IMG/VR virus record: IMGVR_UViG_3300002054_000021
Coordinates: 141,864-205,863 of that record
Source of the DNA: a virus
Taxonomy: Duplodnaviria; Heunggongvirae; Uroviricota; Caudoviricetes
DNA length: 64,000 nt
Strand: one strand, 5' to 3'
Below the pieces are notes generated by a model. It saw only the letters and a list, made by a program, of their open reading frames with translations. It was not told the DNA's origin and did not search any database. The first letter of the stretch is position 1; each line of letters begins with the position of its first letter. Shown here piece after piece: positions 987 to 17,354 of the stretch. The position numbers were made by a program, and so were the translations under genes.

Positions 987-987
987 T

Positions 988-1059
988 TTCGCATCTTCAT
1001 ACGTACAAGATCGCATCTTCATATATTTATATATGTTATTATTTCGCATCTTCATACGT
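988..1059 (+). repeat. TTCGCATCTTCATA(CGT) repeat cluster 1 (3 copies)
   Basis: Copies at 988, 1011 and 1043, read directly. Confidence 0.9.
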
Positions 1060-1265
1060 ATGTCTGTATTTACCTTTTCGGGGTATAGACTTTGATCTAT
1101 CTTGGATCACGCGAGTTCGCTGCGTACCTACGACACGGCTCTTAGCATATGGGTTTCTTTTACTCGACATAACTTTACTGTATACACCTATAAACATTAT
1201 TTGTCAAGTTTTGTTTTTTTATTTTTTTATATTGACAACAATGAATCAATATCTTATCAATAATA

Positions 1266-1332
1266 GAACGCAAGTTTCCGTCACCAAGGAAGCGTTATGG
1301 CGCTATCGTAGCAAGTCTAAGAGCTTGCGTTC
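1266..1332 (+). promoter_or_regulatory. structured 5' leader (multibranch)
   Basis: Closing stem GAACGCAAGTT/AGCTTGCGTTC with internal hairpins, lying between promoter 1232 and the SD of gene 1353. Confidence 0.55.
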
Positions 1333-1352
1333 AAATTAAAAGGGAAAAAGAT

Positions 1353-1724
1353 ATGGCTAACTATTGTTCAAATGATATTGAGGTTAGAGGTGAAAACGTT
1401 TTAGCTGTCGCTGAATATATTCGTGACGGTCAAACATTAATTTCATTTCAAAAAATTATGCCGCGTGACGAAAGTAAAATGCCGAAAGAAGGTGAGTTTT
1501 TTCAGAACAGTGAGCAACGTGAAGAAACATACAAATGGGGCGTAGGGGCAGAACCTACAGATATATACTTACATGATTTGAATGATTCTTACATGTGCAT
1601 ATGCTTTGAAACACGATGGACATACCCCGACAAAATTATTGATGCACTAAGGGAAAAGTTTAAAAACAATACATTTAAATTATCTTATCATGAGCCTAAC
1701 GAAGGCCTTAAAGGGGTTTATTAA
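1353..1724 (+). CDS. DUF1281/YubB ferredoxin-like family protein
   Basis: MANYCSN N-terminus, KWG and FETRWTYP motifs; paralogue of 2104..2547. Confidence 0.65.
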   Translation: MANYCSNDIEVRGENVLAVAEYIRDGQTLISFQKIMPRDESKMPKEGEFFQNSEQREETYKWGVGAEPTDIYLHDLNDSYMCICFETRWTYPDKIIDALREKFKNNTFKLSYHEPNEGLKGVY

Positions 1725-1807
1725 ATGGGAATTATAGACCTGCTTTTAATTGTTGTTATATTCTGGGGATTAATTATGATGTACAAAATAAATAATCCGA
1801 GACGATA

Positions 1808-2029
1808 ATGAAACCTCAATGCGCATTTCGTTTAATACCCTCATTTTACATTTCTAAAATGGAGAGAGGCATATGGATCTATATTTTTTCATACAAATTT
1901 AAAATTCCTTTGCCTTGGTTACCCGTCATTGTAGGTTTCGGTCCTTTATGGGGGCAAGATGAAATGCCCTATACGGAGTGGAAGCCAAGAAAGGCTATAT
2001 GGTGTCCGCATAGACAAGAATTCATATAA
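1808..2029 (+). CDS. hypothetical protein
   Basis: ORF track. Confidence 0.55.
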   Translation: MKPQCAFRLIPSFYISKMERGIWIYIFSYKFKIPLPWLPVIVGFGPLWGQDEMPYTEWKPRKAIWCPHRQEFI

Positions 2030-2103
2030 TTTATTTTTCTTGTTGACAGTCATATAAAAATGTTTATAACGGGAATCAACAAAACAGAAAAGGGTTAAAG
2101 ATT

Positions 2104-2547
2104 ATGCCAAATTGGTGCCAAAATGAATTAACGATATCTTGCGACACGGAAGAAGAGTTAAATAAAATTCTTGAGCTTGTGAAGAGTGAAGATACTCCGC
2201 TTGATTTCGATAAAATTATTCCATACCCAAAAGAATTTTCCGATATGGATAAAATAGCTTCCGACTGGGAAAAGAATCGCACAACAGAATCTTACGCAAA
2301 TAAACCTAAAGATGGTTTTAATAGTGGCGGTTATGAATGGTGTTGCGAAAATTGGGGCACAAAATGGAACGCATGTATTGATGAAGGTGTTGATTGGGAT
2401 GTTGACGGAGATTATGCAATTATTCATTTTAACACCGCTTGGGCACCGCCTGAACCTATTATTGCTAAATTGCGGGAAAAATTCCCTGATGCGAATTTCA
2501 ACGGATTTTACCGTGAAGACGGTATGCAGATTTGCGGTTACTTTTAA
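2104..2547 (+). CDS. DUF1281/YubB ferredoxin-like family protein
   Basis: MPNWCQN, NWGTKWNA and FNTAWAPP motifs. Confidence 0.8.
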   Translation: MPNWCQNELTISCDTEEELNKILELVKSEDTPLDFDKIIPYPKEFSDMDKIASDWEKNRTTESYANKPKDGFNSGGYEWCCENWGTKWNACIDEGVDWDVDGDYAIIHFNTAWAPPEPIIAKLREKFPDANFNGFYREDGMQICGYF

Positions 2548-2589
2548 CCGTTAAATAAAAACATCTATTTTTAAAAAGAGGAAAATATC

Positions 2590-3096
2590 ATGGGTTACAC
2601 GACAGATTTTGAAGGTGAGTTTAAATTAGACAAACCACTAACCGACGAGCATGCGGCATACCTTAGGGCTTTTGCAGACACGCGGCGCATGAAGCGTAAT
2701 GCAAGTATCAGCGAGACTGTAGAAGATAAAGTTAGAACTGATGCAGGGCTTCCCATTGGAGTTGAGGGCGGCTACTTTGTTAATGCAGATGGTTTCAAAG
2801 GGCAGGACAGAGATTCATCTGTATTAGATGGAAACCGTCCGCCGTCTGGACAACCTAGCTTATGGTGTCAATGGGTTCCTAATGATGATGGAACGGCTAT
2901 TGAGTGGGATTGCGGTGAAAAGTTTTATGAGTATGTCCCTTGGATTAAATACATCGTAGAGCACTTTATTAAACCTTGGGGATATATTCTTAACGGTGAA
3001 GTGGAATGGAGCGGCGAAGAAAGCACAGACTTAGGTAAAATTGTCATTAAAGATAATGTCGTTACTGAAAAGTTAGGAACGGTAACTTACGGATAA
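2590..3096 (+). CDS. conserved phage hypothetical protein
   Basis: ORF with SD AGAGGA; MGYTTDFEGEF...WCQW...GEKFY pattern. Confidence 0.75.
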   Translation: MGYTTDFEGEFKLDKPLTDEHAAYLRAFADTRRMKRNASISETVEDKVRTDAGLPIGVEGGYFVNADGFKGQDRDSSVLDGNRPPSGQPSLWCQWVPNDDGTAIEWDCGEKFYEYVPWIKYIVEHFIKPWGYILNGEVEWSGEESTDLGKIVIKDNVVTEKLGTVTYG

Positions 3097-3299
3097 TTTT
3101 TATATACGTTAAAATTTAACAAGGATAGGTCAATGATTGAAAGTGATGAAATAGTTAAAGAGCTTGCAGAGGCTTTTGATGATGACTTGTCCTTAGTTAA
3201 TTTCTTTAATGCAAGATTGGTTGCAAGGATTAGGAGAACTGCTTACGCGCTAAAAGATGGAGCTATACCGCCTAAAGAAAATTAAATTTATTTTTCTTA

Positions 3300-3328
3300 T
3301 TGACTCTTAGTTTTTGGTTTCGTATAAG
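3300..3328 (+). promoter_or_regulatory. sigma70-like promoter lacking -7T
   Basis: TTGACT-17-TATAAG; GACTC in the -35 box and GAATC near +1. Confidence 0.7.
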
Positions 3329-3357
3329 GAATCAACAAAACAAAAAGGGTTAATCAA

Positions 3358-4002
3358 ATGAAGTATCTACGGATCATTCAAACAGAGTGCCAAGTAAGTG
3401 GCGGTATGGGCTGGGCTATAAAAGGCGCTGATATAGACCATCATGATTTTGCGGCGTCATTTCCTGATGATATGCGGTTAATTGCACACGATATTGTCGA
3501 GCACCCTAGCTTAGTTAATATAGGCTCTGTAGAGGACGAATTAGAGGCTTTAGGGGGTGCATGGAACACGCGCGGCAAATGGGGCGACTCTGTAACAGAT
3601 GAAGGCATTGCGGGAGACGTAGGAAATATGTTTAGTCAGTGTCCTGCAGGAGAGTTGAAGAAGGCCCCTAAAACGCGCGGGTTTTATGATGAAGACTTAT
3701 TTAAAATGATTATTAAGTTAGCTAAGAAGTATGCAAAGGATATGTGCGGATATACAAAACAAGCTTGGAAGAAATTTAAAAAGCAAGCTTTGCGGTGGAT
3801 GGGTTTAGGTTATGTTAAATCAGTCAAACGCTTTGGTGATCGATTCGTCAGTAATAATTTATTCAATTCAATAAAAGAAGAATTAGAAAGAGTTGTTCAA
3901 TACGCAATGCCTTATGAAGAGGTTAGTTTAGGCTACTCTTTCAAGAATGGTAGAGTAAAGGTTAGAGCCAGAATCTTTAACCCTTACGAGAATGAGTATT
4001 GA
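3358..4002 (+). CDS. hypothetical protein
   Basis: ORF track, SD AAAGGG. Confidence 0.75.
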   Translation: MKYLRIIQTECQVSGGMGWAIKGADIDHHDFAASFPDDMRLIAHDIVEHPSLVNIGSVEDELEALGGAWNTRGKWGDSVTDEGIAGDVGNMFSQCPAGELKKAPKTRGFYDEDLFKMIIKLAKKYAKDMCGYTKQAWKKFKKQALRWMGLGYVKSVKRFGDRFVSNNLFNSIKEELERVVQYAMPYEEVSLGYSFKNGRVKVRARIFNPYENEY

Positions 4003-4033
4003 CTTTTATTTATCAGTTGGATATACAATAATC

Positions 4034-4237
4034 ATGTCATTTCAAATAACATTCAAGACACGTCGTGCCGCAAGGGTTGGATTAACCGCCATGAAGCAGA
4101 GAAGGGCGTATTATGAATCAGAGGCTTGCAAGTTTAGAGACCTGCCTCACCAAGCAGAATACGTCGCGCAATGCCACGCAGTAATTGACGAGATTGACGA
4201 GACAATAAATGATTTTCAATCAAAAGGATTTCATTAA
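4034..4237 (+). CDS. hypothetical protein
   Basis: In-frame ATG 4034 just after promoter 3999. Confidence 0.6.
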   Translation: MSFQITFKTRRAARVGLTAMKQRRAYYESEACKFRDLPHQAEYVAQCHAVIDEIDETINDFQSKGFH

Positions 4238-4274
4238 AAAGTGAAATAATTATGACTACTCTAAAGGAAAAGAC

Positions 4275-4940
4275 ATGAAAAATTTAGTTGCAATGAATAG
4301 AATATCCTTTCCAGAATTTTCTGGAGTTATAGTCAATATGATGCCTTTTATTATGGGTGATAATAACACGCTACCAGACAGTATAAAAACATATGGAAAA
4401 ATTATTGATAGTTGCAATCTTCCTGATAGTGAAATTGGTAAGGTTGGTTATTTGACAGTAACAGAATCCATTGTCAGTGAAAACGAATCACAGAGGCGCG
4501 GCGGTGTTCATACGGAAGGCTTTAGCGGTGTTGGATGGGGTACTGGATGGGGTACTGGATGGGGCAGAGGTAAAACAAAGCAATCATTCGGAGGCTCTAC
4601 ATTTGGTGCAAGTAATGGTTATGATTTAGATGGTGGTCTATACATGGCAAACTCTATAGATGACACTTGCCAAGCTTGGGATATGCACGTTAAAGAAACT
4701 GGACATTTAGGCTGTCTCGCTCATTTAGGGTTGAAAGATGGTCATAAGATGGAAAAGAATCGGTTATACTGGATGCATGACAGAACCCCACATGAAGCGC
4801 TTCCCTTTGCAGGTGGTAAACGTCAATTTTTCAGGCTTGTTACTTCGGATGTTAGCGTTTGGTATGATAAGCATAATACTCCAAATCCACTAGGGGTTAA
4901 GCCTGCCTGTAAAATAATTTCATCTAATAAATTTCAATGA
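4275..4940 (+). CDS. putative 2OG-Fe(II) oxygenase-fold protein with GWGT repeats
   Basis: HTEG...HEALP...RQFFRL pattern; 12-bp tandem repeat at 4532-4567. Confidence 0.5.
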   Translation: MKNLVAMNRISFPEFSGVIVNMMPFIMGDNNTLPDSIKTYGKIIDSCNLPDSEIGKVGYLTVTESIVSENESQRRGGVHTEGFSGVGWGTGWGTGWGRGKTKQSFGGSTFGASNGYDLDGGLYMANSIDDTCQAWDMHVKETGHLGCLAHLGLKDGHKMEKNRLYWMHDRTPHEALPFAGGKRQFFRLVTSDVSVWYDKHNTPNPLGVKPACKIISSNKFQ

Positions 4941-5347
4941 ACTTTAACTACGCAGGAAATAGAGGATTCGGAATGTCTTACGCTATAGGTGGCTTAGGCA
5001 TGGTTGGCGGATTTTTGGGTCAGATGGCGAATCGATCTCGCGGTTACAAAATAAATGAATATGGAAATATTTCTTATTTCAGACCTATAGGCCCGATTAC
5101 AAAAGAAGAGCACGACTCTATAGAATTAGTTAAGAGAGCAAAAGCTTTTCGCAAGATCGAAGCTAAGCACTACTCTAAGCCGTTCTCATATCCGCCCCAT
5201 CCAGAGGAGACGCGACAACAAAGACGTGCGAGAGAAAGGCTTGAGGCAAAAATGGATTCAGGTCAATATCATAATCAGTCACAAAAGGGAATAAGAACCT
5301 TGACAAAATATGATAGATTTGGCAAAGTGATTAAGAAGGCTAGATGA
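4937..5347 (+). CDS. hypothetical basic protein
   Basis: ORF overlaps the upstream stop (ATGA). Confidence 0.65.
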   Translation: MNFNYAGNRGFGMSYAIGGLGMVGGFLGQMANRSRGYKINEYGNISYFRPIGPITKEEHDSIELVKRAKAFRKIEAKHYSKPFSYPPHPEETRQQRRARERLEAKMDSGQYHNQSQKGIRTLTKYDRFGKVIKKAR

Positions 5348-5510
5348 TAGCCGCCTAATAGAGAATCAAGGAGATTTGATTATGCGCTAGAGAAACGCGA
5401 AGGCGATACTGAGGAACCTTGCCGCAAGGTAATAGTGGGTGACCTCTAACACAATGTTTTAAATTCCGCGAGGTCGGCTCTTAAGTAACAGAGCGCGGCC
5501 TCATTTGTTT

Positions 5511-5835
5511 TTCGCATCTTTGTCCGTGCGCAAATTATTTTATTTTTGTTGTTGACTCTAAAATTCAGATGTGCTTTAAAGTCTTTACAGACTATTTTCC
5601 GAAAGGGTGTCCGAGAAGTTACAGGTGCATATCAGAGGTCATTAGACGTAATGAATTAGGTATGCATATCAGAGGAAGACGGAGCCTTAGTTGGCAGACG
5701 AGCGCAGGTATAAGGTAACTTAATCCTGTCCCTTTCGGAAAATAGTTTTTATGACCGCCTATTTTACCAGATTAACGTCACTTGGTATGTGGCGAGGGGG
5801 TCTCCAAAATTCGCATCTTCATACGTGCGCAAATT
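5511..5835 (+). repeat. TTCGCATCTT repeat cluster 2 (2 copies flanking a candidate ncRNA unit)
   Basis: Copies at 5511 and 5810, both followed by (C/T)CGTGCGCAAATT. Confidence 0.85.
5591..5750 (+). ncRNA. candidate small RNA with 17-bp terminal stem and internal direct repeats
   Basis: ACTATTTTCCGAAAGGG/CCCTTTCGGAAAATAGT followed by a T-run; TGCATATCAGAGG twice (5626, 5663); upstream TTGACT at 5552. Confidence 0.6.
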
Positions 5836-5853
5836 TTTATAAAGGGAATAATT

Positions 5854-6033
5854 ATGTCTGTTAATGTGACAAGGCCGATCAATGGAATATCTATTAACGG
5901 CAATGAGTTTTTACTGGACGATTCTGGCGATCCTATGATTTTTGATAATCAAGAAAGCACTAAATCCTTTCTAATGGAAAATGGTATAGATAAAGATGAT
6001 TTAGATTGTTTTAATTATCCCGAACATAAATAA
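5854..6033 (+). CDS. hypothetical protein
   Basis: ATG 5854 with SD AAAGGG, in frame with ORF 5782..6033. Confidence 0.65.
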   Translation: MSVNVTRPINGISINGNEFLLDDSGDPMIFDNQESTKSFLMENGIDKDDLDCFNYPEHK

Positions 6034-6104
6034 TTTATTTTTCCTGTTGACTCCCTAATTCTTTTGTGCAAGTTATGACTTAACAAAACGAAAAGGGAAT
6101 CGAC

Positions 6105-6668
6105 ATGCAACAATTTAATCCTGCAATACACCAGACAGTAACCATCGGTTATTGGGCAGACGAGCCATATGATAGCTCATTCTATCCTATAGCTTCATTT
6201 AATACTCACATGGTGTCAATGTTATTAGATACATATACGTCAATGGTTAAAGAGTGCTATAAGACCGCAAAGCGCGACATTGGAGACAATGTTGTTATGC
6301 TTGCACATCATGACTTAGAAAACAAAATCAATCCTGATATCGATTCTCGCAATGAGATTGAATTGACATTTGATGATTTGCCACCCTTAAACCTATCTAA
6401 AGCAGATTGCGAAATGCTTGTCGCTAGGCTTGATGAATATCCGCACCCAGATGATGATGAATGGGCACGTTATCACCTTGAGTCTGGAGAGCATATAGAT
6501 TGTAATTTTTACTTAAAGGAAAATAATGACGGCTCTTTTGAGCAGACCATAACAGCATATCGAGTCGTTGATAACGAGACTTTGACTACTAAAGATGAAG
6601 ATATGTTCAAAGTTAAATTCAAATTAAATCAAGATGGAAAAACTTACACTGTTTTGGGGTTTGACTAA
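6105..6668 (+). CDS. hypothetical protein
   Basis: ORF track, own promoter and SD. Confidence 0.75.
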   Translation: MQQFNPAIHQTVTIGYWADEPYDSSFYPIASFNTHMVSMLLDTYTSMVKECYKTAKRDIGDNVVMLAHHDLENKINPDIDSRNEIELTFDDLPPLNLSKADCEMLVARLDEYPHPDDDEWARYHLESGEHIDCNFYLKENNDGSFEQTITAYRVVDNETLTTKDEDMFKVKFKLNQDGKTYTVLGFD

Positions 6669-7102
6669 TGTCTCAATATGCTGATATGACAGAGTCCGAA
6701 ATACTTGATGTTATCGGCCATACTCATGAGCGTTGTGAGTGGTGCGGAACAACAAGTTCTTTCAAAGATATACAAGCGTCTAGCGATGAAGGTGAGTGCC
6801 CTAGTTGCGGACGCCAAGAGGATTTGACGCCGATATTAAAGCCAGAGACAGAAACTCCTAAAAAGGTTACTAGGGGCGATGTAACGGATGATATTTGCGA
6901 GTTCTATATTAGCGGCAATGTGACAGGCGGCGATGAACCTAATACGGACTATCATGCTTGCATTTGGCGTGACACAGAAACAGGCGAAATCATGGGTCAT
7001 ATGTCAAACGGACATTTTGACAACACAGAAAGAACGCGGGACATTCCGCAACAGTCAGCAAGAAAAGCTTATCTTTGGGCTTGGAGTCAATACTATGCCT
7101 AA
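6668..7102 (+). CDS. zinc-finger-containing hypothetical protein
   Basis: CEWC...CPSC. Confidence 0.65.
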   Translation: MSQYADMTESEILDVIGHTHERCEWCGTTSSFKDIQASSDEGECPSCGRQEDLTPILKPETETPKKVTRGDVTDDICEFYISGNVTGGDEPNTDYHACIWRDTETGEIMGHMSNGHFDNTERTRDIPQQSARKAYLWAWSQYYA

Positions 7103-7337
7103 GCTTCCAGATGAATATATAAATGAGTATGATGAATTTTACATCACGCAACACAACAATCCAGAAGATAAGGACGCTAAGCCTTACGTGTTTATAACTG
7201 GCGGAGAAGATATCTTAGACGCTGACGAAGACGCTAAGTTATTGATGAAGGTTCCTGCAAAGGTCTTATTAGATGCCGCTGAGAAGTGGTCTTTGACTCA
7301 AGAATTATTTGATATGAATAAAAAGAAGCGGAAGTGA
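7095..7337 (+). CDS. hypothetical protein
   Basis: ATG 7095 with SD GGAG, in frame with ORF 6933..7337. Confidence 0.6.
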   Translation: MPKLPDEYINEYDEFYITQHNNPEDKDAKPYVFITGGEDILDADEDAKLLMKVPAKVLLDAAEKWSLTQELFDMNKKKRK

Positions 7338-7570
7338 TGAAAAACTGTAAAGATTGTGGCTACTATAAGCCCATATGCAAAGAAATGGCAGATTACTATG
7401 AAGTCAAGCAAGTTGGCGGATTGTGTCAGTATTCATCATATGACGGACTAGATAAAGAAGATTCCGATGATGTTGACTTGTTGGCTTATGCAAGTGATGA
7501 TAGCGGCCTTATGACTGATTTGCATGTAGGCCCTAATTTTGGTTGCGTTAAATTTATCGAGAAAAAATGA
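7334..7570 (+). CDS. small Cys-rich protein
   Basis: CKDC...C...FGC. Confidence 0.6.
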   Translation: MMKNCKDCGYYKPICKEMADYYEVKQVGGLCQYSSYDGLDKEDSDDVDLLAYASDDSGLMTDLHVGPNFGCVKFIEKK

Positions 7571-7626
7571 AATTAACACTTGACAATATATTCGATATTC
7601 ACTAAATATAATTATATTGAAATTGT

Positions 7627-7703
7627 CCGCGCTTAGCTCAGTTGGTAGAGCACTCAGTAGATTAACTGAGGGGTCTGAGTTTCGAGTCCTTGAGCGCGGA
7701 CCA
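7627..7703 (+). tRNA. atypical tRNA / tRNA-like RNA with 8-nt anticodon loop (undetermined isotype)
   Basis: Acceptor CCGCGCT/AGCGCGG-A-CCA; D arm GCTC/GAGC; stem CTCAG/CTGAG with loop TAGATTAA; T loop TTCGAGT with T53 mismatch. Confidence 0.75.
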
Positions 7704-7725
7704 AATTCAGTCTAAAGGGATTTAC

Positions 7726-8208
7726 ATGTCAAGACCATTTTTTGAAACTAGATACTGCCCGAAAGAAGAGGCAATAGCTATGATTGAGCAGGTTAATATA
7801 ACACCTGAATCAACAGTGCTTGAACCGAGCGCGGGAGAAGGTGGAATTTCTGATCTGATTTACATGCGAACAAATAACGTAACAGCTATTGAGCTTCACA
7901 AACCTCACTACGAGACATTAAAAGAAAAACCTTATCGGACGTTAAACAAAAACTTTCTACTTGTCACCGAGAAGGATATAGGGCTATTTTCACACATTGT
8001 TTCATGTCCACCATTTGATACGGTTAACCATTTAAACCATATGAGAAAATTATTAGAAAATAATGGCGTTCTTATAGCATTAGTTATGGGGAATCTTTTG
8101 AATGATTTTTGGTTAGACTATTACAAAGAATTGAATCTAGATTTTAAGGCACCAGATGGGAGAATGATAAAATGTGGTATCGTAAAATATTTACATGGCG
8201 TCAATTAG
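7726..8208 (+). CDS. SAM-dependent methyltransferase (amino-MTase-like, motif IV variant CPPF)
   Basis: Motif I VLEPSAGEGG; IVSCPPF. Confidence 0.7.
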   Translation: MSRPFFETRYCPKEEAIAMIEQVNITPESTVLEPSAGEGGISDLIYMRTNNVTAIELHKPHYETLKEKPYRTLNKNFLLVTEKDIGLFSHIVSCPPFDTVNHLNHMRKLLENNGVLIALVMGNLLNDFWLDYYKELNLDFKAPDGRMIKCGIVKYLHGVN

Positions 8209-8621
8209 GAGGTCTTAAAGAATGTCCTTATTTCAGAAGAACTATATTAAATTTTGGATTCTTTACAATTAGATTTCACAGGTGGTATGGAGATGACGAT
8301 AATCGCGCTTTACACTGTCATCCTTTCTCTTTTGTTACATTCGTTATCACAGGCGGCTATACAGATGTAAATGAAAGCGCTGACGATGTTGTTAGGGCAG
8401 GGTCTGTACGTTTTCGTAATGCTGAATATAGACATTCAGTAAGAGATGTTTTACCTAATACGCGAACCATTTTGATTACCACTAAAGCGTTTAGGCGTTG
8501 GGGTTTTTATGTAGATGGAAAGCTTATAAAGAGGGATAAATATTTTTCTGAATATGGACACCATCCTTGCGATGTTAACGATAAGGCAATAAGAATTAAT
8601 CCTGATGGAAAACGTATTTAA
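8172..8621 (+). CDS. cupin-like phage protein
   Basis: LHCHPFSFVTFVITGGYTD...H motif. Confidence 0.6.
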   Translation: MWYRKIFTWRQLGGLKECPYFRRTILNFGFFTIRFHRWYGDDDNRALHCHPFSFVTFVITGGYTDVNESADDVVRAGSVRFRNAEYRHSVRDVLPNTRTILITTKAFRRWGFYVDGKLIKRDKYFSEYGHHPCDVNDKAIRINPDGKRI

Positions 8622-8862
8622 TTTTGGTTGCATTAAATTTGTTGATAAGGTATAATTATTAGGCATGTTCGGGCCTACGGGTGGACTACAAGAAGGTATT
8701 TGCGGCACCTGAATAACACGAAAAAAAGTTATTCGAATAGCCGCTACTTTCATTTTGATCTGAATTATAATTCATATAAATATTAATATTATATGTAATT
8801 ATTATTCTTGACTTCCTCAATATTTATGTTATATTATTACAGTGTAATAAAGTAACTTATTT

Positions 8863-9456: not shown

Positions 9457-9463
9457 TTTAATT

Positions 9464-9577
9464 TTCGCATCTTCAAACTTGAATGCGAGTCAATTTTTCG
9501 CATCTTGATTCACTTTGGGGAGCAAAATTTTCGCATCTTGATTCACAAACACGAGTCGTTTTCGCATCTTCATAGGT
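9464..9577 (+). repeat. TTCGCATCTT repeat cluster 3 (4 copies)
   Basis: Copies at 9464, 9497, 9530 and 9561 (31-33 bp period). Confidence 0.9.
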
Positions 9578-9925
9578 ATATATAGGTAAAAACTTACCCG
9601 CACATACGCCCACGAAATTTCATATGTTATAAAATAACATTTTATGAAAATAAACACATAATGTTATATTATCACATTACTGCGATTCATCATTTTTCAC
9701 ACATAAGATTATAGACCCTTAACGGATGTTAAGAATCAGAGTTAATCGGATTAACCTTAATCATAAATAAAGATTCGCGTCAAGGGGGAATCTAGATTAT
9801 CTTTATTTTTCTTATATACATTATATAGGGAAATTATTTTTTATTTTTTATGTTTTTTTTTGTTGACGTATTTATTTTTATGTGCAAAAAACAATCATCT
9901 TATAAATCAGGAAAGGAAAAATAAG

Positions 9926-10771
9926 ATGGGAATTATAATGAAACCGCTAGACGATATGAAATTTTTTGAAGTATCGCGCCAACCTGTTACGCTTGAAGGC
10001 ACAGACATTCTTGTCCCGCGCAAAAATGCGATAACAGTTAACGGAACGCCAACGGGCCACATGACAAGCGAAAAATACGCTATTCATCAACCTAAAAATA
10101 TTTACCGTTCTTTTCAGCGCGTATGCAAAAAGACTGGACTTGAAATTGACCGCAAGCGCTCTTTTTTAAATCCTTCAAATGGCGGCATGATTTTAAGCGC
10201 AAAATATAAAACCAAGATGTTCGACACTGGAAACAAGAAAGAACGTCATGATTTTAACGTGGTATTCTATACGGCGCATGATGGGAAATATAAGACGTTC
10301 TTAACTATTGACGTTTTACGCTTGCTTTGCATGAATCAAGCCCCTGCCCTATATCGCGGTAAAGACAATCATGTTATGAGTGAAAAGCACTATAAGAACG
10401 CGCTTAAGCTCTCCACACTTGAAAGCCGTTTAGAAGGGATTGAACAATCTGTTAATATGTATCAAGCTAGAATGGAAAATTTATGCGATGTTAAAATGAC
10501 ACTTGCGGATTTTAAAGAGTTCTATATTGCGCACTATAAGCTTGATAAAGAATCATCTCATTTTGACGGCAAAATGGAAACGCTTGAAGATGTCTATTAT
10601 GACGCCAAAGGGCAAAGCGAAATTGCCAACGATACCGCTTACAAGGCCTTTAACGTGATTACATACCTAAACACGCATAAGGTTAGTAACACCAATGGGC
10701 GGGAAGAAAACAAGCTTACAGTAAAAGCAAAAGACACTAGCAAGGTCTTACGTGAATTGTTGGCGGCATAG
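9926..10771 (+). CDS. DUF932-family protein
   Basis: TAHDG...RLLCMNQ and C-terminal AYKAFNVITYL pattern; ATG 9926 follows SD GAAAGGA. Confidence 0.7.
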   Translation: MGIIMKPLDDMKFFEVSRQPVTLEGTDILVPRKNAITVNGTPTGHMTSEKYAIHQPKNIYRSFQRVCKKTGLEIDRKRSFLNPSNGGMILSAKYKTKMFDTGNKKERHDFNVVFYTAHDGKYKTFLTIDVLRLLCMNQAPALYRGKDNHVMSEKHYKNALKLSTLESRLEGIEQSVNMYQARMENLCDVKMTLADFKEFYIAHYKLDKESSHFDGKMETLEDVYYDAKGQSEIANDTAYKAFNVITYLNTHKVSNTNGREENKLTVKAKDTSKVLRELLAA

Positions 10772-10792
10772 CCCGAATCACATAACCAAAGA

Positions 10793-10817
10793 AAGCGGGG
10801 TTAAGCCCCGTTTTTTT
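10793..10817 (+). terminator. rho-independent terminator
   Basis: CGGGG-TTAAG-CCCCG followed by T7. Confidence 0.85.
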
Positions 10818-10844
10818 ATGTCTGAAATTATTTTATTTTTCTTG

Positions 10845-10951
10845 TTGACTCGAATAAAAAACTATTTTAAAATGGTTATGGAGCCTTGAAAAAAGATCGA
10901 AATTTTCTACGAGCATCACCCAATTTTATCTGATTCGCCGTTCCGTGTCAA
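10845..10951. promoter_or_regulatory. convergent promoter pair
   Basis: + TTGACT-17-TAAAAT (10845-10873); - TTGACA-17-TAAAAT (10951-10923). Confidence 0.7.
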
Positions 10952-10994
10952 GCGAAAAGATTTTATTTTTTATCGTTTATTTTTATTTTTCTTA

Positions 10995-11023
10995 TTGACT
11001 TGTTAAGACTTACGCCTTAAAAG
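10995..11023 (+). promoter_or_regulatory. sigma70-like promoter lacking -7T
   Basis: TTGACT-17-TAAAAG followed by GGAATC. Confidence 0.6.
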
Positions 11024-11054
11024 GGAATCATCAAAAAAGGAAAGGTTTGATAAA

Positions 11055-11555
11055 ATGAATAAATCTAATATGCAAAAAATTGACGCCCTAATGAATGGCG
11101 GTAATGCGGGGGCCTTCGCAAGCCTTGTGACTGTGACTCGCGTCGGTATCTTAAAGCCATGCGGCAAAATCGTTAAAGGGACTCGCGCTCTTAAAGACGG
11201 TGAGAGAGAAGTCACTAAACGCGCCGAGTTTGTAACACAAAGCAAAACAAGCTATGTGAAGCGCGCCACGGCCAAAGATTCAAGCTTTGAATTATCGCCG
11301 CGCAGATGGGGCGAAAGAATCTCAAAGAACCTTGTTCAACATAATGGCGGGTTATATCTTGAAACTATCCATGACCCTGAAAACGGACTCGCAAAGCCAA
11401 AAGTCACATATTTTGTTGACGGTATCGAGACTCCCGCGTCTGATTTGGAATTGCCAAAAGCACGGCCAAGTAAAAGCGGAATCGAGGTGCGCACATTTAA
11501 AGGCGAATCAATCCGTCAAATCAAACTAGGCGGGGAAACTATAATCGCCGCGTAG
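11055..11555 (+). CDS. conserved phage hypothetical protein
   Basis: ORF with SD GAAAGG. Confidence 0.75.
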   Translation: MNKSNMQKIDALMNGGNAGAFASLVTVTRVGILKPCGKIVKGTRALKDGEREVTKRAEFVTQSKTSYVKRATAKDSSFELSPRRWGERISKNLVQHNGGLYLETIHDPENGLAKPKVTYFVDGIETPASDLELPKARPSKSGIEVRTFKGESIRQIKLGGETIIAA

Positions 11556-11562
11556 CTCTTAA

Positions 11563-11588
11563 GGGGAGTCGGCATAATTCGACTCCCA
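11563..11588 (+). terminator. terminator-like hairpin
   Basis: GGGGAGTCG/CGACTCCCC followed by ATAATTTTTT. Confidence 0.65.
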
Positions 11589-11701
11589 TAATTTTTTATA
11601 TAAGGAATAAATCCGATGGAAGATGGAAACGGATTCACCTCAAAATTTGCACTAGGCCTTGCAATGTTCTTTGCTATAGCCTTAGCGTTTGGCTCTTAAT
11701 C

Positions 11702-12076
11702 ATGGCTAAGGATATTTATCAAAAGTTGACTCATCATGAGCTAGTCAATGATTTGCGCTATGAGATTAAGCGCTCTAATGATGTTGCGCCAATGGCAAAT
11801 ATTAGCGCCGTTAATAAGCTCTTAGATGAAACGTATGACCGCTTAAGCTCTTACACGTCAAATCTAATGCTTGCTATATTAACAGGTTTAATTTTCGGAT
11901 GTGCAGTGGCGGCAATCGGAATCATGACTCAGCACAATTTAGACAAGTCAAAAATGGTTGATTGTGTCGAATATATAGAAGTCGATAACTTTTCAAGATG
12001 TGCCATTTTTAAATGGAAAGATATGAAGTATGCGACTCAGTATGCGGAAACATATCCTGATAAAGGAGTCGAGTAA
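11702..12076 (+). CDS. hypothetical membrane protein
   Basis: One hydrophobic segment (LMLAILTGLIFGCAVAAIGIM). Confidence 0.65.
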   Translation: MAKDIYQKLTHHELVNDLRYEIKRSNDVAPMANISAVNKLLDETYDRLSSYTSNLMLAILTGLIFGCAVAAIGIMTQHNLDKSKMVDCVEYIEVDNFSRCAIFKWKDMKYATQYAETYPDKGVE

Positions 12077-12280
12077 TGTCTATTTTTCAACATATCTATT
12101 GGTATATTATAGCAATGATAGAGTTTAGGAGTATGGTGACAACGAGCCACCCCGATGAATTTATGTTTACATATGACAAGGGACGTGATATGGCTCACAA
12201 GTTAACGCTTAGATATTTTGACAATGAATGAAAACAGTAAAAATAGACTAGCGGCTCTTTCCCCTTAACGCTAGTCGATT

Positions 12281-12310
12281 GCCTCGCCTGAAATATGGCG
12301 GGGCTTTTTT
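12281..12310 (+). terminator. rho-independent terminator
   Basis: GCCTCGCC/GGCGGGGC followed by T6. Confidence 0.8.
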
Positions 12311-12530
12311 GTTACTATATAACATAAATAAAATACGCGCAGGATTCGGCGGCATCCGAACCAGACTCCCGTATCGTGATTATTTTATTACATATATAAA
12401 AATTAGAGTCAACAGGAAAAATAAAATATATGGATTTATTTTAGGTAGTGACGCCTTAGTTAAATCAGGCTTTGGAAACCCATATGAATAAATCTCAAAA
12501 TTGGCGTTATAATTTTTTTTATTTTTCATG

Positions 12531-12639
12531 TTGACACGCCCCCGAAAATCGTGTTAATGTGGGGCGACGAATCAAATTACCCGCCGCCCCTAACCGTAGG
12601 CTCCGTGTCCATTTTAGCTGATTCGATTGCTACTGTCAA
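12531..12639. promoter_or_regulatory. convergent promoter pair
   Basis: + TTGACA at 12531; - TTGACA-17-TAAAAT (12639-12611); GGGGCG/CGCCCC hairpin between them. Confidence 0.65.
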
Positions 12640-12680
12640 GCATTAATTTTATTTTTTTATATATGTTTTTATTTTTATTA

Positions 12681-12709
12681 TTGACTCGTTAACTTTTAAT
12701 ATCTATAAA
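12681..12709 (+). promoter_or_regulatory. sigma70-like promoter lacking -7T
   Basis: TTGACT-17-TATAAA, GACTC overlap. Confidence 0.7.
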
Positions 12710-12741
12710 TAAATTATCGAAACAAATATGGAGATTCGATT

Positions 12742-12972
12742 ATGCCGTTAGACATTACAATTAGGCGCAATAAAGCTATATCTCAAGCCGTAGTGACTAA
12801 ATCACTAGCGCAAGAGGTTGTTAAGAGTAGAATAGAGAATCTTAAATTCAGAGGCATTGAAGGCGATTCTGGGATGGTCTTAGTTGCGCTTGATATTGCT
12901 ATGACGCAAAACAGAACTGCGTCAGGATGGTTTGGTCCTTATCAATTCCTCTTTACAGGACGAATAAAATAG
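12742..12972 (+). CDS. hypothetical protein
   Basis: ORF with SD GGAG. Confidence 0.65.
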   Translation: MPLDITIRRNKAISQAVVTKSLAQEVVKSRIENLKFRGIEGDSGMVLVALDIAMTQNRTASGWFGPYQFLFTGRIK

Positions 12973-12987
12973 TGTGTAATTGTATCT

Positions 12988-13545
12988 ATGTCAGATAATG
13001 TAAAAATATGTTCTATAAATAATTGCGAAAGACCCGTTCTGTGTAAGGGTTGGTGTGGCTTGCATTATGATAGGGATAGGAAGGGCATAGATATGAATAA
13101 ACCTATTCCTGCGCCATTTGGAGCGGGCTTTGACTTTATTGTAAGTCTCATATTTTACACTGGTGACGATTGCGTTAACTGGCCTTACAGTCAAGCTGAT
13201 GGATATGGAAAATTAAAATATAAAGGAAAGACATTTACGGCTAGTAGATTATTACTTCAGTTAATCTATGGTGAGGACGCAGTAAAGGGAATGGATTCTG
13301 CGCATTCATGTCACAACAGATTATGTTGCAATCCAAATCATTTAAGAATTGCTACTAGGAAATCTAATATGATGGACAAGCTAGCAGACGGGACAAATAT
13401 AGGCGGCAGAAAATTAACTGAAAGCGAAGCTATAAAGATTAAATATGACACTAGGATTCCGTATAGGGTTATCGCAGAAGATTACAATACAACAGTTTCA
13501 AATGTAAGTTCTATAAAACTTGGCAAATCATGGAAGTATATTTAA
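12988..13545 (+). mobile_element. HNH/His-Me finger homing endonuclease
   Basis: CSINNC...CGLHY; AHSCHNRLCCNPNHL; C-terminal HTH. Confidence 0.9.
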
Positions 13546-13679
13546 GGAGAATCAAATGAGTTATGATGAAAAAACTATGGCCATTTTAAAAGGTGGTGTT
13601 TGTCTAATGTTTGTAACATTTTGTTTTTCAGCATGGCAAGCCGTAGAATTATTAGAAAACATAAAAGGGATGTATTAAA

Positions 13680-13871
13680 ATGAGAGTTCAAATTAAATCA
13701 GGCCGCAAGGTTGAGTCCGCTACTGCCTCGCATGGAGAGAACGGGTTAATTATTATTAAAAGTAATAAAAGCGATATTCACACAAGCCTAGATTCGAAAG
13801 ACTTTAACAAGCGATTTATGCGCTACGGTAGCAAGGCCGTTTTTTACCCTAATCTTAAAAGGAGTCGTTAG
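13680..13871 (+). CDS. hypothetical protein
   Basis: ORF with SD AAAGGG. Confidence 0.55.
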   Translation: MRVQIKSGRKVESATASHGENGLIIIKSNKSDIHTSLDSKDFNKRFMRYGSKAVFYPNLKRSR

Positions 13872-14080
13872 TGGTAAAGCCAACAACAGAAGAGGGCAAA
13901 GTCTGGGTTAAGCATCCGCAATATGGAAAGCCTGTCTATAGAAAGAAGCGTAATATATATGCGGATAAGTACGCGCCGCAATGGCTTTATTTAGTTGACA
14001 AAAGAAATTAAATTTCGATCTTAACGAATCATTTACCTGTTTAGCCTATAAAGGCAATTCAACAAAACGAAAGAAAAACT

Positions 14081-14656
14081 ATGTTAAACAGATTTACAAT
14101 TTCAGCGTCTATCTTTGCGGCAGGCTTTGCGCTTATCGCGGCCCACGCGGAACCCGTTAACAAGCCAGTAAAGACCGAGTCAGATATTGCGACTCAACGT
14201 GTAGAAGCTAGACAGGCTTTGCAGTTGGCTCAAGATATCGAGCGGGAAAGGGTTAAACAGTTATCATGCCTTGCATATACATTATGGGGCGAAGCTCGGT
14301 CAGAAAGCCAGCTAGGTCAAGAGATGGTCGCAACGGTTATTCTTAATCGTGTGGACTCATCAAAATTTCCAGATACTATTTGCGGAGTCGTGCATCAAAG
14401 TAAGCAATTTTCAATGTATAATAAAGGTGATGTAAACGGTGGTAAAGCTCATAAAGCATTTACTAGCGCAAAGCCTTCAAATGAAGTTTTAATGGCCTTG
14501 CACGTCTCTAAGAAGGTTTTAAGAACTCCAAAAGTTAATCGCATACTTCCTAAATCTAGTCTTAATTATCATACTACATCTGTTAGCCCGAAGTGGAACA
14601 AAAACCTCAAAAAATATGCTTCGGTAGATTCACATATATTTTATACGCTACCTTGA
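14081..14656 (+). CDS. cell wall hydrolase, SleB/Hydrolase_2 family
   Basis: CLAYTLWGEARSE, VILNRV, FPDTICGVVHQSKQFS, NYHTTSVSPKW, HIFY; N-terminal signal peptide. Confidence 0.9.
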   Translation: MLNRFTISASIFAAGFALIAAHAEPVNKPVKTESDIATQRVEARQALQLAQDIERERVKQLSCLAYTLWGEARSESQLGQEMVATVILNRVDSSKFPDTICGVVHQSKQFSMYNKGDVNGGKAHKAFTSAKPSNEVLMALHVSKKVLRTPKVNRILPKSSLNYHTTSVSPKWNKNLKKYASVDSHIFYTLP

Positions 14657-14695
14657 CTTTTCCCTATCATATGGTATTATTCAACCATAACAATA

Positions 14696-15412
14696 ATGGG
14701 GCGTGGAATGACTTGCACAATAGAAGGATGTGACAGAAAGCATAAGGCAAGAGGTTATTGCGATATGCACTACAATAGATGGAGAAAGCATGGTGATGAC
14801 TTTGACAGGTCATTGCCTGCAACCTTTGACCAATGCAGTGTGGAGGGGTGCGACAACCCTCATTATGGTAATTCTTTTTGCTCACCTCACAATAAAAGAT
14901 TCAAGAAACATGGATGCCCTTTGCATGGAGGCCCATTAAAAAAGAAGGTTAAAGCAGGAACAGCGGATAAGTTTATAGATAGCTTAGGAGGTATAAAACA
15001 TAATGATTGCATTATATGGCCGTTCTATAAGAATCCTCAAGGACAGATGATACATAGAGTTGATGGGATTACAGTAACGGCAGGCAGGGTTATTTTAGAA
15101 CGTCATGTAGGGCCACCGCCAAGCCCTAATCATGCCGCATTACATAAGCCTATTGACTGTCATAATCAATCTTGTTGCAACCCAAATCATTTGCGATGGG
15201 GAACATATAAAGAGAATCAACTTGATATGATAAAAGATAAAACTGTTATTAGAGGAGAGGATTGTAAGTCTTCTAAACTTAAAGAAAATCAAGTTAGAGA
15301 GATAAGGGCAGACAATAGATATATAAAAGATATAGCAAATGATTACGGAGTTTCATTTTCACTTGTTAGTCAAATAAAAAGACGTGAGGCTTGGTCATGG
15401 TTAAAGGATTAG
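14696..15412 (+). mobile_element. HNH/His-Me finger homing endonuclease with tandem Zn-binding repeats
   Basis: Two C-x-x-EGC...C-x-x-H repeats; LHKPIDCHNQSCCNPNHL; HTH tail. Confidence 0.9.
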
Positions 15413-15589
15413 TTATGCAAGACCATAATAAAATACATATACAAAAAATGATTGCGTGGATTGGCGCGCTTTCATTTTCTGTTATGCTTTGGGGAATCAT
15501 TATAGAATTTATTTCATATATTTTATTTTTATGATTGACTCAATTAACCTGATAGTTCATAACAAGATAACAAAACGGGAAAGAAGAAA

Positions 15590-16114
15590 ATGAAAACGCT
15601 ATTAAAAACTTTATCAATCTGCGCTCTTGCTATTAGCGCAACAGCTTGCGGCGTTCAATCGGATGCAAAGAAAGAAGTTTCAAAAATTGTCCTAGACCCT
15701 ACGTCTTTAATTTGGGGCGATTCGGTGGTCATGCCCTATAAAGATGGTCAAAAAATTGTCTGCGGTCATTTCAATGCAAAGAACGCGCTAGGGGCCTATG
15801 TGGGCAATACGGCTTATATTTACATTGACGCAAAACCGCCTATTGTTGATATGCAAACGGCAGATAATTCAAGCCAGTTCTTAAAGGTTTGGAATAGCTC
15901 TTGCTTTGAACGTGACGAAAGCGGAGTCGGTCAAGTATATCGTGAGAGCTTAAATAATTATGAAAGCAAATTTCAGATATATGCAAATGATGACAATAAA
16001 AATAATGATTGTTTATATATTATGAGCGCTATTAGGTTAATCAATAAAGCGGACGGGAGTCTAAATCAATATATGACGATTTGGCAAGACCGCAAAGAAA
16101 AGTATTGCCGCTAA
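15590..16114 (+). CDS. putative lipoprotein
   Basis: Signal peptide with lipobox ATAC; VCGHFNAKNALGAYVG. Confidence 0.7.
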   Translation: MKTLLKTLSICALAISATACGVQSDAKKEVSKIVLDPTSLIWGDSVVMPYKDGQKIVCGHFNAKNALGAYVGNTAYIYIDAKPPIVDMQTADNSSQFLKVWNSSCFERDESGVGQVYRESLNNYESKFQIYANDDNKNNDCLYIMSAIRLINKADGSLNQYMTIWQDRKEKYCR

Positions 16115-16115
16115 T

Positions 16116-16355
16116 ATGTTTAAATCATTTGAAGTTGATAAAGTAGAGTCGGCCCTAATCAATGGAGTCTTTTCAGAGTTAATAAATATAAAGTTTGAAG
16201 ACCTTAGAGCCTTAAAGAATAAACCGCCTAACAAGGTCTCATTGCAAGCTTTGCGTGTCATGGTCAATCTTTTAGAGAAGACTGTAACGCCTGAAATTTT
16301 CGAGCACTTGATAAGCGAGAAAGATTTAGCTTTGATTGAGAGCTACGAAACATAA
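16116..16355 (+). CDS. hypothetical protein
   Basis: ORF track. Confidence 0.6.
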   Translation: MFKSFEVDKVESALINGVFSELINIKFEDLRALKNKPPNKVSLQALRVMVNLLEKTVTPEIFEHLISEKDLALIESYET

Positions 16356-16379
16356 ATTTAATATTCACTCCCCTAACTA

Positions 16380-16407
16380 GCCCGCCATAATCGCGGGCAT
16401 TTTTTTT
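16380..16407 (+). terminator. rho-independent terminator
   Basis: GCCCGC/GCGGGC followed by AT8. Confidence 0.8.
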
Positions 16408-16573
16408 GCATATATTTTATTTTTCTTGTTGACTCCATAAATTATTATGTCTATAAAATAATTGAGGATGGCGATAAGGCAAATGGTTTGGGAGTGCGGG
16501 GTGTATTTTAAATAAATATTGATTTATTTTTTATTTATGGTATAATATAACATATAAAATACGGGATATAATC

Positions 16574-17038
16574 ATGACTAAAATAAATTATTATGAAAGG
16601 ATTAAATACTTAGAATCTATAGATTTAAATTCTAATGAATGTATAGAATGGCCGTTTGCTCTAGATGGCAATGGGTATGGAATATTTTATTTCAAGAAGG
16701 AAAAGTTTAGAGCTAGTCGAGAATCTCTTATTATACATAAATGCAAAAGGCCTAGTGAAAATCATTATGCTTTGCACATCCCTGAAATATGTCATAACCC
16801 AAAATGCGTTAATCCAAATCATTTATACTGGGGAACAATATCTGACAATCATAAGGATATGGAATTTGACAACACAAGCGCAAAGGGCGAAAGACACCCT
16901 CAATCAATACTAACTGAAATTGATGTTTTGAAAATTAGAGAAGATTGCCGAAGCTACAGGATTATAGGCAATGATTATGGAGTTTCAAAAAGTTGTATAA
17001 GAGATATAAAAATAGGTAAAACTTGGTCTCATATCTGA
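16574..17038 (+). mobile_element. HNH/His-Me finger homing endonuclease
   Basis: CIEWPF; LHIPEICHNPKCVNPNHL; HTH tail. Confidence 0.9.
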
Positions 17039-17069
17039 TTTATATTTACTATTCAAATTTTTGGCTCGA

Positions 17070-17150
17070 TTCGCATCTTCATACTTTTATATACGCACAA
17101 ATTTCGCATCTTCACATGTATAGCCACGCGCGAGATTCGCATCTTCATAC
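17070..17150 (+). repeat. TTCGCATCTTCA repeat cluster 4 (3 copies)
   Basis: Copies at 17070, 17103 and 17136 (exact 33-bp period). Confidence 0.9.
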
Positions 17151-17178
17151 ATATACACGCATAGGAATATATACCTAT

Positions 17179-17226: not shown

Positions 17227-17354
17227 GCGGCAAATGTTACAATATAACATAGCAAAGCCCATAGGAATTTATACCTATAAGAGAATCATAATTATTGCTC
17301 AAATCGTTTCATAGATTCATTAATAAATCTATAAGAAAATAATTTATTATTCGT

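Follow-up and report, generated by a model that had tools for sequence, protein, structure and literature searches.

A strand-specific intergenic motif in a 208-kb phage genome and its possible use as a second promoter class

INTRODUCTION

Lytic phages commonly possess class-specific promoter motifs that are near-invariant and co-oriented, as exemplified by T7-type promoters; dispersed asymmetric operators are familiar from the C1 repressor of phage P1, and phage origins with iterons, such as lambda ori, are well established. In the middle promoters of phage T4, which depend on sigma appropriation by MotA and AsiA, the MotA box is centred at −30, with a good sigma-70 −10 element 12 ± 1 bp downstream of it (PMC2988021). 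In phage tf, 14 nicks have been mapped in the sequence TACTRTGMC, all on one strand (PMC3517423). Here, we describe a short oriented word, TTCGCATCTT, that recurs between genes in a stretch of 64,000 nucleotides of phage DNA (hereafter, the window), which comprises positions 141,864–205,863 of the 208,360-bp phage record IMGVR_UViG_3300002054_000021 (Caudoviricetes). Coordinates refer to the window unless they are given as genome positions. A preliminary description of the window reported twelve co-oriented repeats, confined to its early region and, in two clusters, phased at about 33 bp, and proposed that they are polar protein-binding sites such as iterons, segregation sites, injection-stop signals or nick sites. 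The analysis presented here covers the whole genome and leads us to favour, tentatively, a second class of phage promoter.

DISTRIBUTION AND ORIENTATION OF THE MOTIF

A total of 11 exact matches to TTCGCATCTT were identified in the window, all on the + strand (starting at positions 988, 1043, 5511, 5810, 9464, 9497, 9530, 9561, 17070, 17103 and 17136), compared with 0.22 expected from dinucleotide-preserving shuffles, and a count of 11 was reached in none of 100 shuffles of the window. The twelve copies counted in the preliminary description are indeed all on the + strand, but consist of these 11 and one near copy with a single mismatch, ATCGCATCTT, at 1010–1019; the position of 1011 previously given for this copy is the start of its 9-nt core. 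Beyond 17.2 kb, the word TTCGCATCTA, which differs by one mismatch, occurs at 28055 and 31767 only, and the partial copy at 28055 is therefore not the sole one in this part of the window, as had been thought.

In the whole 208,360-bp genome, TTCGCATCTT occurs 28 times on the + strand and not once on the − strand, and the strand bias first seen in the window thus holds genome-wide. Seventeen of the 28 exact copies lie upstream of the window (genome 44,044–140,548) and 23 fall within genome 124,955–159,008, most copies being found at 125–159 kb; the structural/late block contains three single intergenic copies (genome 68,583, 106,449 and 117,696) and two intragenic copies (genome 44,044 and 84,416), the latter of which may be due to chance. 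The confinement to the early region that had been proposed is accordingly correct inside the window but only approximate for the genome. Non-coding DNA, defined as DNA outside open reading frames (ORFs) of at least 70 codons, represents 14% of the genome and holds 26 of the 28 exact copies (P about 2e-20), and all 12 copies in the window lie outside real genes, consistent with their initial description as intergenic. Genes are encoded on the − strand at 2–37 kb and 184–208 kb of the genome and on the + strand at 40–184 kb; every copy of the motif is located within the + strand block, in the same direction as the genes, and the approximately 60 kb of − strand genes contain none.

Several trivial origins were considered. 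Chance or low complexity is ruled out by the shuffles, by the weight matrix described below and by the enrichment in non-coding DNA. A coding repeat is likewise ruled out: the reading frame is broken by the spacings (22, 31 and 33 nt) and interrupted by stop codons, and the sites are free of genes in the ENA gene calls. A bias of type IIS or type III restriction sites (GCATC, GAAGA) was also rejected, as these 5-mers are unbiased beyond the contribution of the motif itself.

ANATOMY OF THE MOTIF

Alignment of the intergenic copies revealed approximately 21 informative positions in an asymmetric arrangement, AATT-TTCGCATCTT-CAYAYGT, and no further block conserved at a constant distance from them. 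A weight matrix constructed from these copies identified 31 sites with scores of at least 14 bits on the + strand of the genome and none on the − strand; scores between 9 and 14 bits are almost empty, without a tail of weak sites, indicating that the motif family is sharply bounded. Within arrays, the cores are 96% identical, compared with 46% for the 20 flanking positions (and 41% for these positions between any two copies), and each core is therefore individually maintained. The motif is real, oriented and strongly selected. The earlier interpretation of the repeats as polar protein-binding sites stands insofar as they are oriented, selected recognition sites, as shown by the 28:0 strand ratio, the restriction to non-coding DNA and the difference between cores and flanks, whereas the specific proposals made for them fit poorly, as discussed below.

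Seven of the 13 single copies have a −10-like hexamer that begins exactly 7 nt ahead of the core, compared with a background of 3.7% per position, and its 3′ end thus lies one base ahead of the core. Hexamers were regarded as −10-like when their second base was A, their sixth was T, and no fewer than four of the six bases matched TATAAT; the seven are TAAATT, AATAAT, GATAAT, AATAAT, TACAAT, TATAAT and CATAAT. The stop codon of the upstream gene lies inside four of them, but the other three contain no stop codon of any gene, and hence the hexamer is not merely stop-codon context. No −35 element accompanies the adjacent hexamer in the alignment of the intergenic copies. Among the copies in tandem arrays, 3 of 16 carry a −10-like hexamer. 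The possibility that TTCGCATCTT is itself part of a sigma-70 promoter, with TTCGCA as the −35 element, was rejected because no −10 element was found at 16–18 bp.

PLACEMENT OF SINGLE COPIES BETWEEN GENES

The placement of the motif was read from the gene calls of an identical second assembly. In compact intergenic gaps, either the motif or an early promoter of the class described in the next section, but never both, begins 2–5 nt past the upstream stop codon, and these gaps measure 45–57 nt with the motif and 71–74 nt with an early promoter. Single copies sit 23–75 nt ahead of start codons, the distance between motif and ATG being 37, 38, 43, 44, 46, 54, 58 and 75 nt for the gene-proximal copies and 23 and 25 nt for the second copy in each of two doublets. 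Single copies in long gaps lie near the next ATG rather than the previous stop codon, with stop and ATG distances of 216 and 58 nt at genome 68,583, of 104 and 38 nt at genome 136,726, and of about 60 and 44 nt at 5810. The region at genome 125,030–127,381 comprises five genes, including that for a phage translation initiation factor IF3, with six copies of the motif and no early promoters. These data establish the motif, its restriction to one strand and to intergenic DNA, the fact that it and the early promoters exclude each other in placement, and the −10-like hexamer beside it.

Two single copies come after terminator-like hairpins, namely the hairpin at 5470–5502 and the one behind rIIB. 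Two single copies in the window are as follows.

5511–5520, + strand: single core copy, directly after the hairpin at 5470–5502 and a T-rich run, and 30 nt before the UP element and −35 of an early promoter
5810–5819, + strand: single core copy, about 60 nt after the end of a structured RNA and 44 nt before the ATG at 5854

The early promoter beyond the copy at 5511 is predicted to drive this structured RNA, which contains no ORF (5591–5750). The ATG at 5854 is preceded by the ribosome-binding site AAGGGA, and no early promoter lies between it and the copy at 5810.

THE EARLY PROMOTER CLASS

Repeat analysis identified a separate family, composed of TTTTATTTTTCTTG-TTGACT(c), a spacer of about 17 nt and TAtAAn, followed by the shared leader AATCAACAAAAC and a ribosome-binding site, which is predicted from its sequence to be a host-type early promoter with an UP element and is distinct from the TTCGCATCTT motif. 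A broader pattern for such promoters found 24 copies, all on the + strand, 21 of which are located at genome 127.9–158.3 kb; 13 early promoters lie within 300–16,450 of the window. One example is the promoter that follows the single copy at 5511.

5533–5581, + strand: early promoter, consisting of TTTTATTTTTGTTG, TTGACT, 17 nt and TTTAAA

With the strict pattern of an UP element plus TTGAC, no early-type + strand promoter was found between 47.9 and 127.9 kb of the genome, and a looser pattern adds only one, at 96.4 kb. The copy at 5511 is the only copy of the motif near an early promoter. Intrinsic terminators are rare in this region: in 1–20,000, a scan yielded terminator-like sites about as often as in shuffled sequence, and a more stringent scan for perfect stems in genome 123–163 kb found three sites.

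The early promoters (294–16463; genome 127.9–158.3 kb) also carry two fixed GANTC words, TTGACTC at the −35 and GGAATCA just past the −10, and the −10 often ends in a base other than T (TATAAG, TATAAC, TATAAA). The nearest cultured relatives of the large terminase include phages of Brevundimonas, Caulobacter and Dinoroseobacter. On the basis of the GANTC words and the terminase relatives, an alphaproteobacterial host with CcrM-type methylation is conceivable.

TANDEM ARRAYS

Five tandem arrays start at genome 126,546, 140,511, 142,851, 151,327 and 158,933. They begin 2–32 nt past the end of a gene or tRNA, or follow an ORF-less structured stretch, and a non-coding stretch of 250–520 nt lies behind each; four of them have an early-type promoter 177–290 nt further downstream. 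Three arrays and two genes adjoining them are located in the window as follows.

988–1052, + strand: array 1, with cores at 988–997 (exact), 1010–1019 (ATCGCATCTT) and 1043–1052 (exact)
9464–9570, + strand: array 3, four exact copies starting at 9464, 9497, 9530 and 9561
17070–17145, + strand: array 4, three exact copies starting at 17070, 17103 and 17136
8875–9456, + strand: HNH homing-endonuclease-like gene, directly upstream of array 3
16574–17038, + strand: HNH homing-endonuclease-like gene, directly upstream of array 4

Array 1 starts 2 nt past the stop codon of the ORF at 627–986, and 177 nt separate it from the next early promoter (−35 at 1232). Array 3 starts 8 nt past the stop codon of the first HNH gene; behind it lie a 355-nt non-coding stretch (26% GC) with early-type promoters and then a DUF932 gene (9926–10771). 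Array 4 starts 32 nt past the stop codon of the second HNH gene, and the 414 nt of non-coding DNA behind it (30% GC) contain a promoter, TTGACT-18-TATAAT, at 17355. The three-turn phasing of about 33 bp that had been noted is present in arrays 3 (33/33/31 bp) and 4 (33/33 bp), but does not extend to the other spacings, which are 22/33 bp in array 1 and 12, 23, 25, 25, 29 and 65 bp elsewhere. The previous exclusion of a CRISPR array was sound, as the motif has a 10-nt core (about 21 nt in full) with intervals of 12–23 nt, whereas CRISPR arrays have repeats of 24–48 nt and unique spacers of like length.

HNH genes directly precede three of the five arrays (about P 0.003, hypergeometric estimate). 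The idea that these enzymes are a single family targeting the arrays was rejected, since the three array-adjacent proteins do not form a clade and are not each other's closest relatives; they share 25–43% identity, and one belongs to a different type. Endonuclease genes would naturally land in the largest non-coding gaps.

The array at genome 140,511–140,622 contains four copies and begins 4 nt after a + strand tRNA-Met gene; a converging − strand tRNA-Leu gene lies beyond it (the tRNA pair occupying genome 140,433–140,719), followed by a − strand I-TevI-like endonuclease gene into which a degenerate early promoter, TTGACT-17-TATACA (at about genome 140,860), points. The presence of this degenerate promoter beyond the array suggests that the − strand cassette of endonuclease and tRNA genes is the scar of a later insertion.

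No RNA fold common to the arrays was found, the word being paired in some copies and free in others, and the non-coding stretches after the arrays share only AT-rich words. At 9479–9489, an imperfect inverted copy of the motif, TTGAATGCGAG, forms an 11-bp bulged hairpin with the first copy of array 3; this was the only inverted partial copy seen. The ORF-less stretch at genome 126,455–126,545, which lies between copies of the motif, has a perfect 7-bp closing stem (CTGAGCA/TGCTCAG) followed by TTTT, and includes a hairpin resembling a tRNA T-arm, AGGGTTCGACTCCCTT. Its fold is no more stable than those of shuffled sequences (z −0.8), and tRNA and Rfam searches of the stretch were negative.

A POSSIBLE SECOND PROMOTER CLASS

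The interpretation that we favour, as a plausible one rather than a probable one, is that TTCGCATCTT marks a second, phage-specific class of promoters with a start inside the core, which would be used by the host polymerase together with a putative phage factor after the early promoters. At single sites, the nATAAT-type hexamer one base before the core would serve as the −10 element without a −35, and RNA polymerase would start at about the A of GCATCTT, a position that follows from the standard −10-to-start geometry of bacterial promoters. The conserved block would then span about −6 to +12, and the resulting leaders of approximately 17–70 nt would carry the ribosome-binding site of the next gene. 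Promoters of this kind, lacking a −35, would need a phage-made activator or sigma-like subunit that recognizes the core, and hence would become active later than the early promoters, forming a middle or delayed class. The arrays would represent multiple copies of the same recognition site, functioning as tandem start sites or as loading sites for the factor. It is from sequence that we infer the start at the motif, its timing and the factor.

Several observations weigh against such promoters. The −10-like hexamer is lacking in 13 of the 16 array copies; the arrays abut the end of the upstream gene, 300–520 nt from the next gene, which has an early promoter of its own; and a spacing of 33 bp is too tight, given the footprint of bacterial polymerases, for several of them to bind side by side. 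The array at genome 140,511–140,622 points into a − strand tRNA gene and a − strand endonuclease gene, although this reversed context may have arisen through a later insertion. A conserved block downstream of a −10 hexamer is, in addition, in the usual place of an operator. The tandem arrays after gene ends are only partly explained by promoters.

The search for a protein that could read the motif adds to these difficulties. PF00940 gives no candidate for a T7-type RNA polymerase in the genome, and no DFDGD or DFDxD catalytic motif occurs in its large proteins, although very divergent polymerases are possible; the large ORFs encode the tail fibre, tape measure, terminase, synthetases and similar proteins. 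No sigma-70 region 2 was detected in the 208-kb genome. The Pfam families MotCF (the C-terminal part of MotA) and AsiA have no match in the genome, in a search that gave no signal in control genomes either and that leaves room for remote homologues. Scans of about 50 proteins with PHROGs and Pfam, together with precomputed Pfam results on about 65 kb, named no regulator. Finally, no relatives carrying the motif were found.

One gene in the window encodes a protein with potentially suitable features.

36854–37447, + strand: gene encoding 197 aa, with a helix-turn-helix like that of sigma-70 region 4 (SRERVRQI) at the N-terminus and a winged-helix-like part at the C-terminus

Residues 11–85 of this protein match sigma-70 region 4 with 23.4 bits (cut-off 24.1) and show weak matches to SigB and SigA chains, and its C-terminal half resembles winged-helix regulators in a predicted model of medium confidence. 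It contains no sigma region 2, and its gene lies just upstream of PcfJ-like and DnaG-primase genes. This predicted protein is the only candidate for a sequence-specific factor that was found, and its putative link with the motif is offered as a lead only. An asymmetric site of 21 bp would be well matched by two different DNA-binding modules; from their sequence, however, its sigma-like residues could equally target the TTGAC −35 elements of the early promoters. The protein could also mimic or compete with host sigma region 4 at TTGAC −35 boxes.

ALTERNATIVE EXPLANATIONS

An alternative that we consider unlikely, although it deserves serious attention, is that the motif is an operator or roadblock, at which a phage DNA-binding protein covers weak promoter starts consisting of a −10 only, thereby repressing or timing them, with the arrays forming an oriented roadblock or insulator against early read-through. 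The conserved block at about −6 to +12 from the predicted start is in a classic operator position, the core is near-invariant, as expected for a specific binding protein, and the two-domain helix-turn-helix protein predicted at 36854–37447 would be a suitable ligand. The arrays begin 2–32 nt past gene ends, mostly without the hexamer, in a region where intrinsic terminators are rare, which is consistent with a roadblock. On the other hand, the five-gene cluster at genome 125.0–127.4 kb would have repressor sites with no recognizable strong promoter, and direct shut-off of early transcription is ruled out because only one copy (5511) lies near an early promoter. Operators or roadblocks therefore explain the arrays better, and the five-gene cluster worse, than promoters do. 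A combination of both, in which one two-domain phage protein, possibly the product of 36854–37447, creates or gates starts at single sites beside a −10 hexamer and acts as a polar terminator or insulator at the arrays behind early genes and homing-endonuclease cassettes, seems to us improbable; we know of no described phage system that combines start-site gating with a polar terminator made of tandem arrays.

A signal at the RNA level is equally improbable. In this case, the word would be a processing site between cistrons or around small RNAs and tRNAs, a boxA-like antitermination element, or the site of an RNA-binding protein. Such a signal would account for the position of the copies, always on the sense strand and between cistrons, for their location on either side of the ORF-less structured stretches at 5591–5750 and genome 126,455–126,545, and for the copy that begins 4 nt after tRNA-Met; CGC(A)TCTTTA also presumably resembles boxA (CGCTCTTTA). 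However, a start at the place implied by the hexamer would leave only half of the word in the RNA, the arrays have no common RNA fold and Rfam finds nothing there, and the genome contains neither a complementary RNA nor a hammerhead-type partner. A trans-acting ribozyme or antisense partner was rejected on the last point, as no hammerhead-like core with matching arms is present in the genome; one 10-nt complementary word exists, inside a coding region, compared with about two such words expected by chance on a rough estimate.

It is very unlikely that the arrays are iterons, bound by a replication initiator or partition protein at one or more origins, with the single copies being auto-regulatory. 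Three to four direct repeats at 22–33 bp beside AT-rich non-coding DNA (26–30% GC after arrays 3 and 4) are reminiscent of such origins, but the sites are spread over 115 kb, as five or more arrays and about ten singlets or doublets, the single sites occur at fixed short distances from unrelated genes, spacings of 12, 23, 25 and 29 bp also occur, and no initiator gene adjoins the arrays; the DnaB-like and DnaG-like genes are located away from them. The same dispersal and the association with gene starts speak against the segregation sites and the single injection-stop region that had been put forward together with iterons.

The weakest explanation, and a highly improbable one, is that one strand is nicked specifically at the copies, in the manner of T5, phiKMV-like phages and tf, perhaps by a phage HNH enzyme: although the exact 9–10-mer, its presence on one strand only and its uneven spread recall tf (PMC3517423), and three of the five arrays lie directly behind HNH genes (about P 0.003), 26 of the 28 copies avoid genes, whereas in the annotated record of tf 10 of the 14 nicks lie inside coding sequences (two of them in genes of opposite orientation), cuts 22–33 nt apart would leave short oligonucleotides, and the array-adjacent HNH proteins are not a clade, the big gaps being simply where endonuclease genes can insert.

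THE PHAGE AND ITS RELATIVES

The genome encodes a T4-type large terminase, tape measure, baseplate wedge, a fibre protein of 2,701 aa, rIIA-rIIB, IF3 and tRNAs, as well as many HNH and GIY-YIG endonucleases. A second assembly (ENA ERZ27298441, 208,476 bp) shows 100% identity across the 22 kb compared, and its first base lies about 99 kb from the start of the IMG/VR record; as two identical assemblies begin at such different points, a circular assembly is suggested, and thus an essentially complete genome that is circularly permuted or terminally redundant. Neither this assembly nor a Logan contig of the same phage, each being 100% identical to the record, adds any variation.

The phage is distant from those described. 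Its large terminase is at most 43% identical to that of any GenBank phage, no GenBank phage matches its DNA, and the nearest rIIA proteins, among 5.8 billion cluster-representative proteins, show 28–32% identity over most of their length. Back-translation scans for close relatives with DUF932 and rIIA were empty. In five loci from three distant rIIA relatives, TTCGCATCTT is absent and no analogous oriented motif was found; these relatives have the rIIA-rIIB-GP88-KTSC gene order in common, have a GC content of 41–44%, and encode PolA, an SNF2 helicase and a 5′-3′ exonuclease. The samples containing them are SRR4188651, ERZ27298441, ERZ6863811 and ERR9287625/7, and one relative co-occurs in the samples of the phage described here. 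Scans for the tandem pattern in 2.9 million viral contigs and in a metagenome collection yielded 22 and at least 120 loci, and those inspected were unrelated coding or simple repeats; no locus is similar to this genome by blastn or shows the extended consensus in a comparable setting. In the literature, a search for the word returned unrelated primers only.

IMPLICATIONS

If TTCGCATCTT does mark promoters, the motif maps a second temporal class of genes in a phage lineage without cultured or close sequenced relatives; this class would include the phage IF3 gene, several membrane proteins and small RNAs. It would also point to a factor that redirects host RNA polymerase to promoters conserved at and immediately behind the start site. 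What is unusual is the presence of tandem arrays behind gene ends, and a role as roadblock or insulator could be revealed by them. At present, the motif is well supported but belongs to an ordinary kind of phage regulatory motif.

COMPARISON WITH KNOWN SYSTEMS

The middle promoters of T4 resemble the single sites in that a short, asymmetric, phage-specific element takes the place of the −35 and is present in many copies, all oriented along transcription. T4 likewise has a prereplicative region with strong early promoters composed of UP, −35 and −10 elements, and rIIA-rIIB genes. The geometry differs, however: the MotA box lies upstream of the −10, whereas the block conserved here lies immediately downstream of a −10-like hexamer. 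At the MotA distance, 11–13 bp past the core, −10-like hexamers are not enriched, the best downstream offset accounting for 3 of the 13 single copies, compared with 7 of 13 immediately upstream. In addition, the core is far more invariant than MotA boxes, and T4 has no tandem arrays of this kind. The promoter-early stem-loop (PeSL) cassettes of T4-type phages are likewise repeated between small early genes in a plastic region rich in homing endonucleases, but they consist of an early sigma-70 promoter and a stem-loop, and thus match the early-promoter class of this phage and not the TTCGCATCTT motif.

Promoters read by phage polymerases or sigma factors (the 23-bp T7-type promoters, phiEco32 gp36 and phiKZ/AR9) likewise have a near-invariant block of about 20 bp that includes the predicted start, and are strand-specific, intergenic, near gene starts and co-oriented with the genes. 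Unlike phages with their own polymerases (T7-type, or multisubunit as in phiKZ, AR9 and crAss), the phage described here has no detected gene for a polymerase or for sigma region 2. The nick sites of tf, phiKMV-like phages and T5 are also exact words of 9–10 nt that are unevenly spread on one strand (PMC3517423); those of tf are mostly intragenic and independent of gene direction, whereas TTCGCATCTT lies between genes in 93% of cases, is associated with gene starts and ends, and often occurs in tandem. Lambda ori and iteron plasmids similarly have tandem direct repeats at 22–33 bp beside AT-rich DNA, but iteron origins comprise one or a few clusters with an initiator gene, in contrast to the many dispersed arrays and single sites found here with no adjacent initiator. 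The element is thus of a familiar kind, and what is new is its sequence, its position relative to the −10-like hexamer and its occurrence in tandem arrays.

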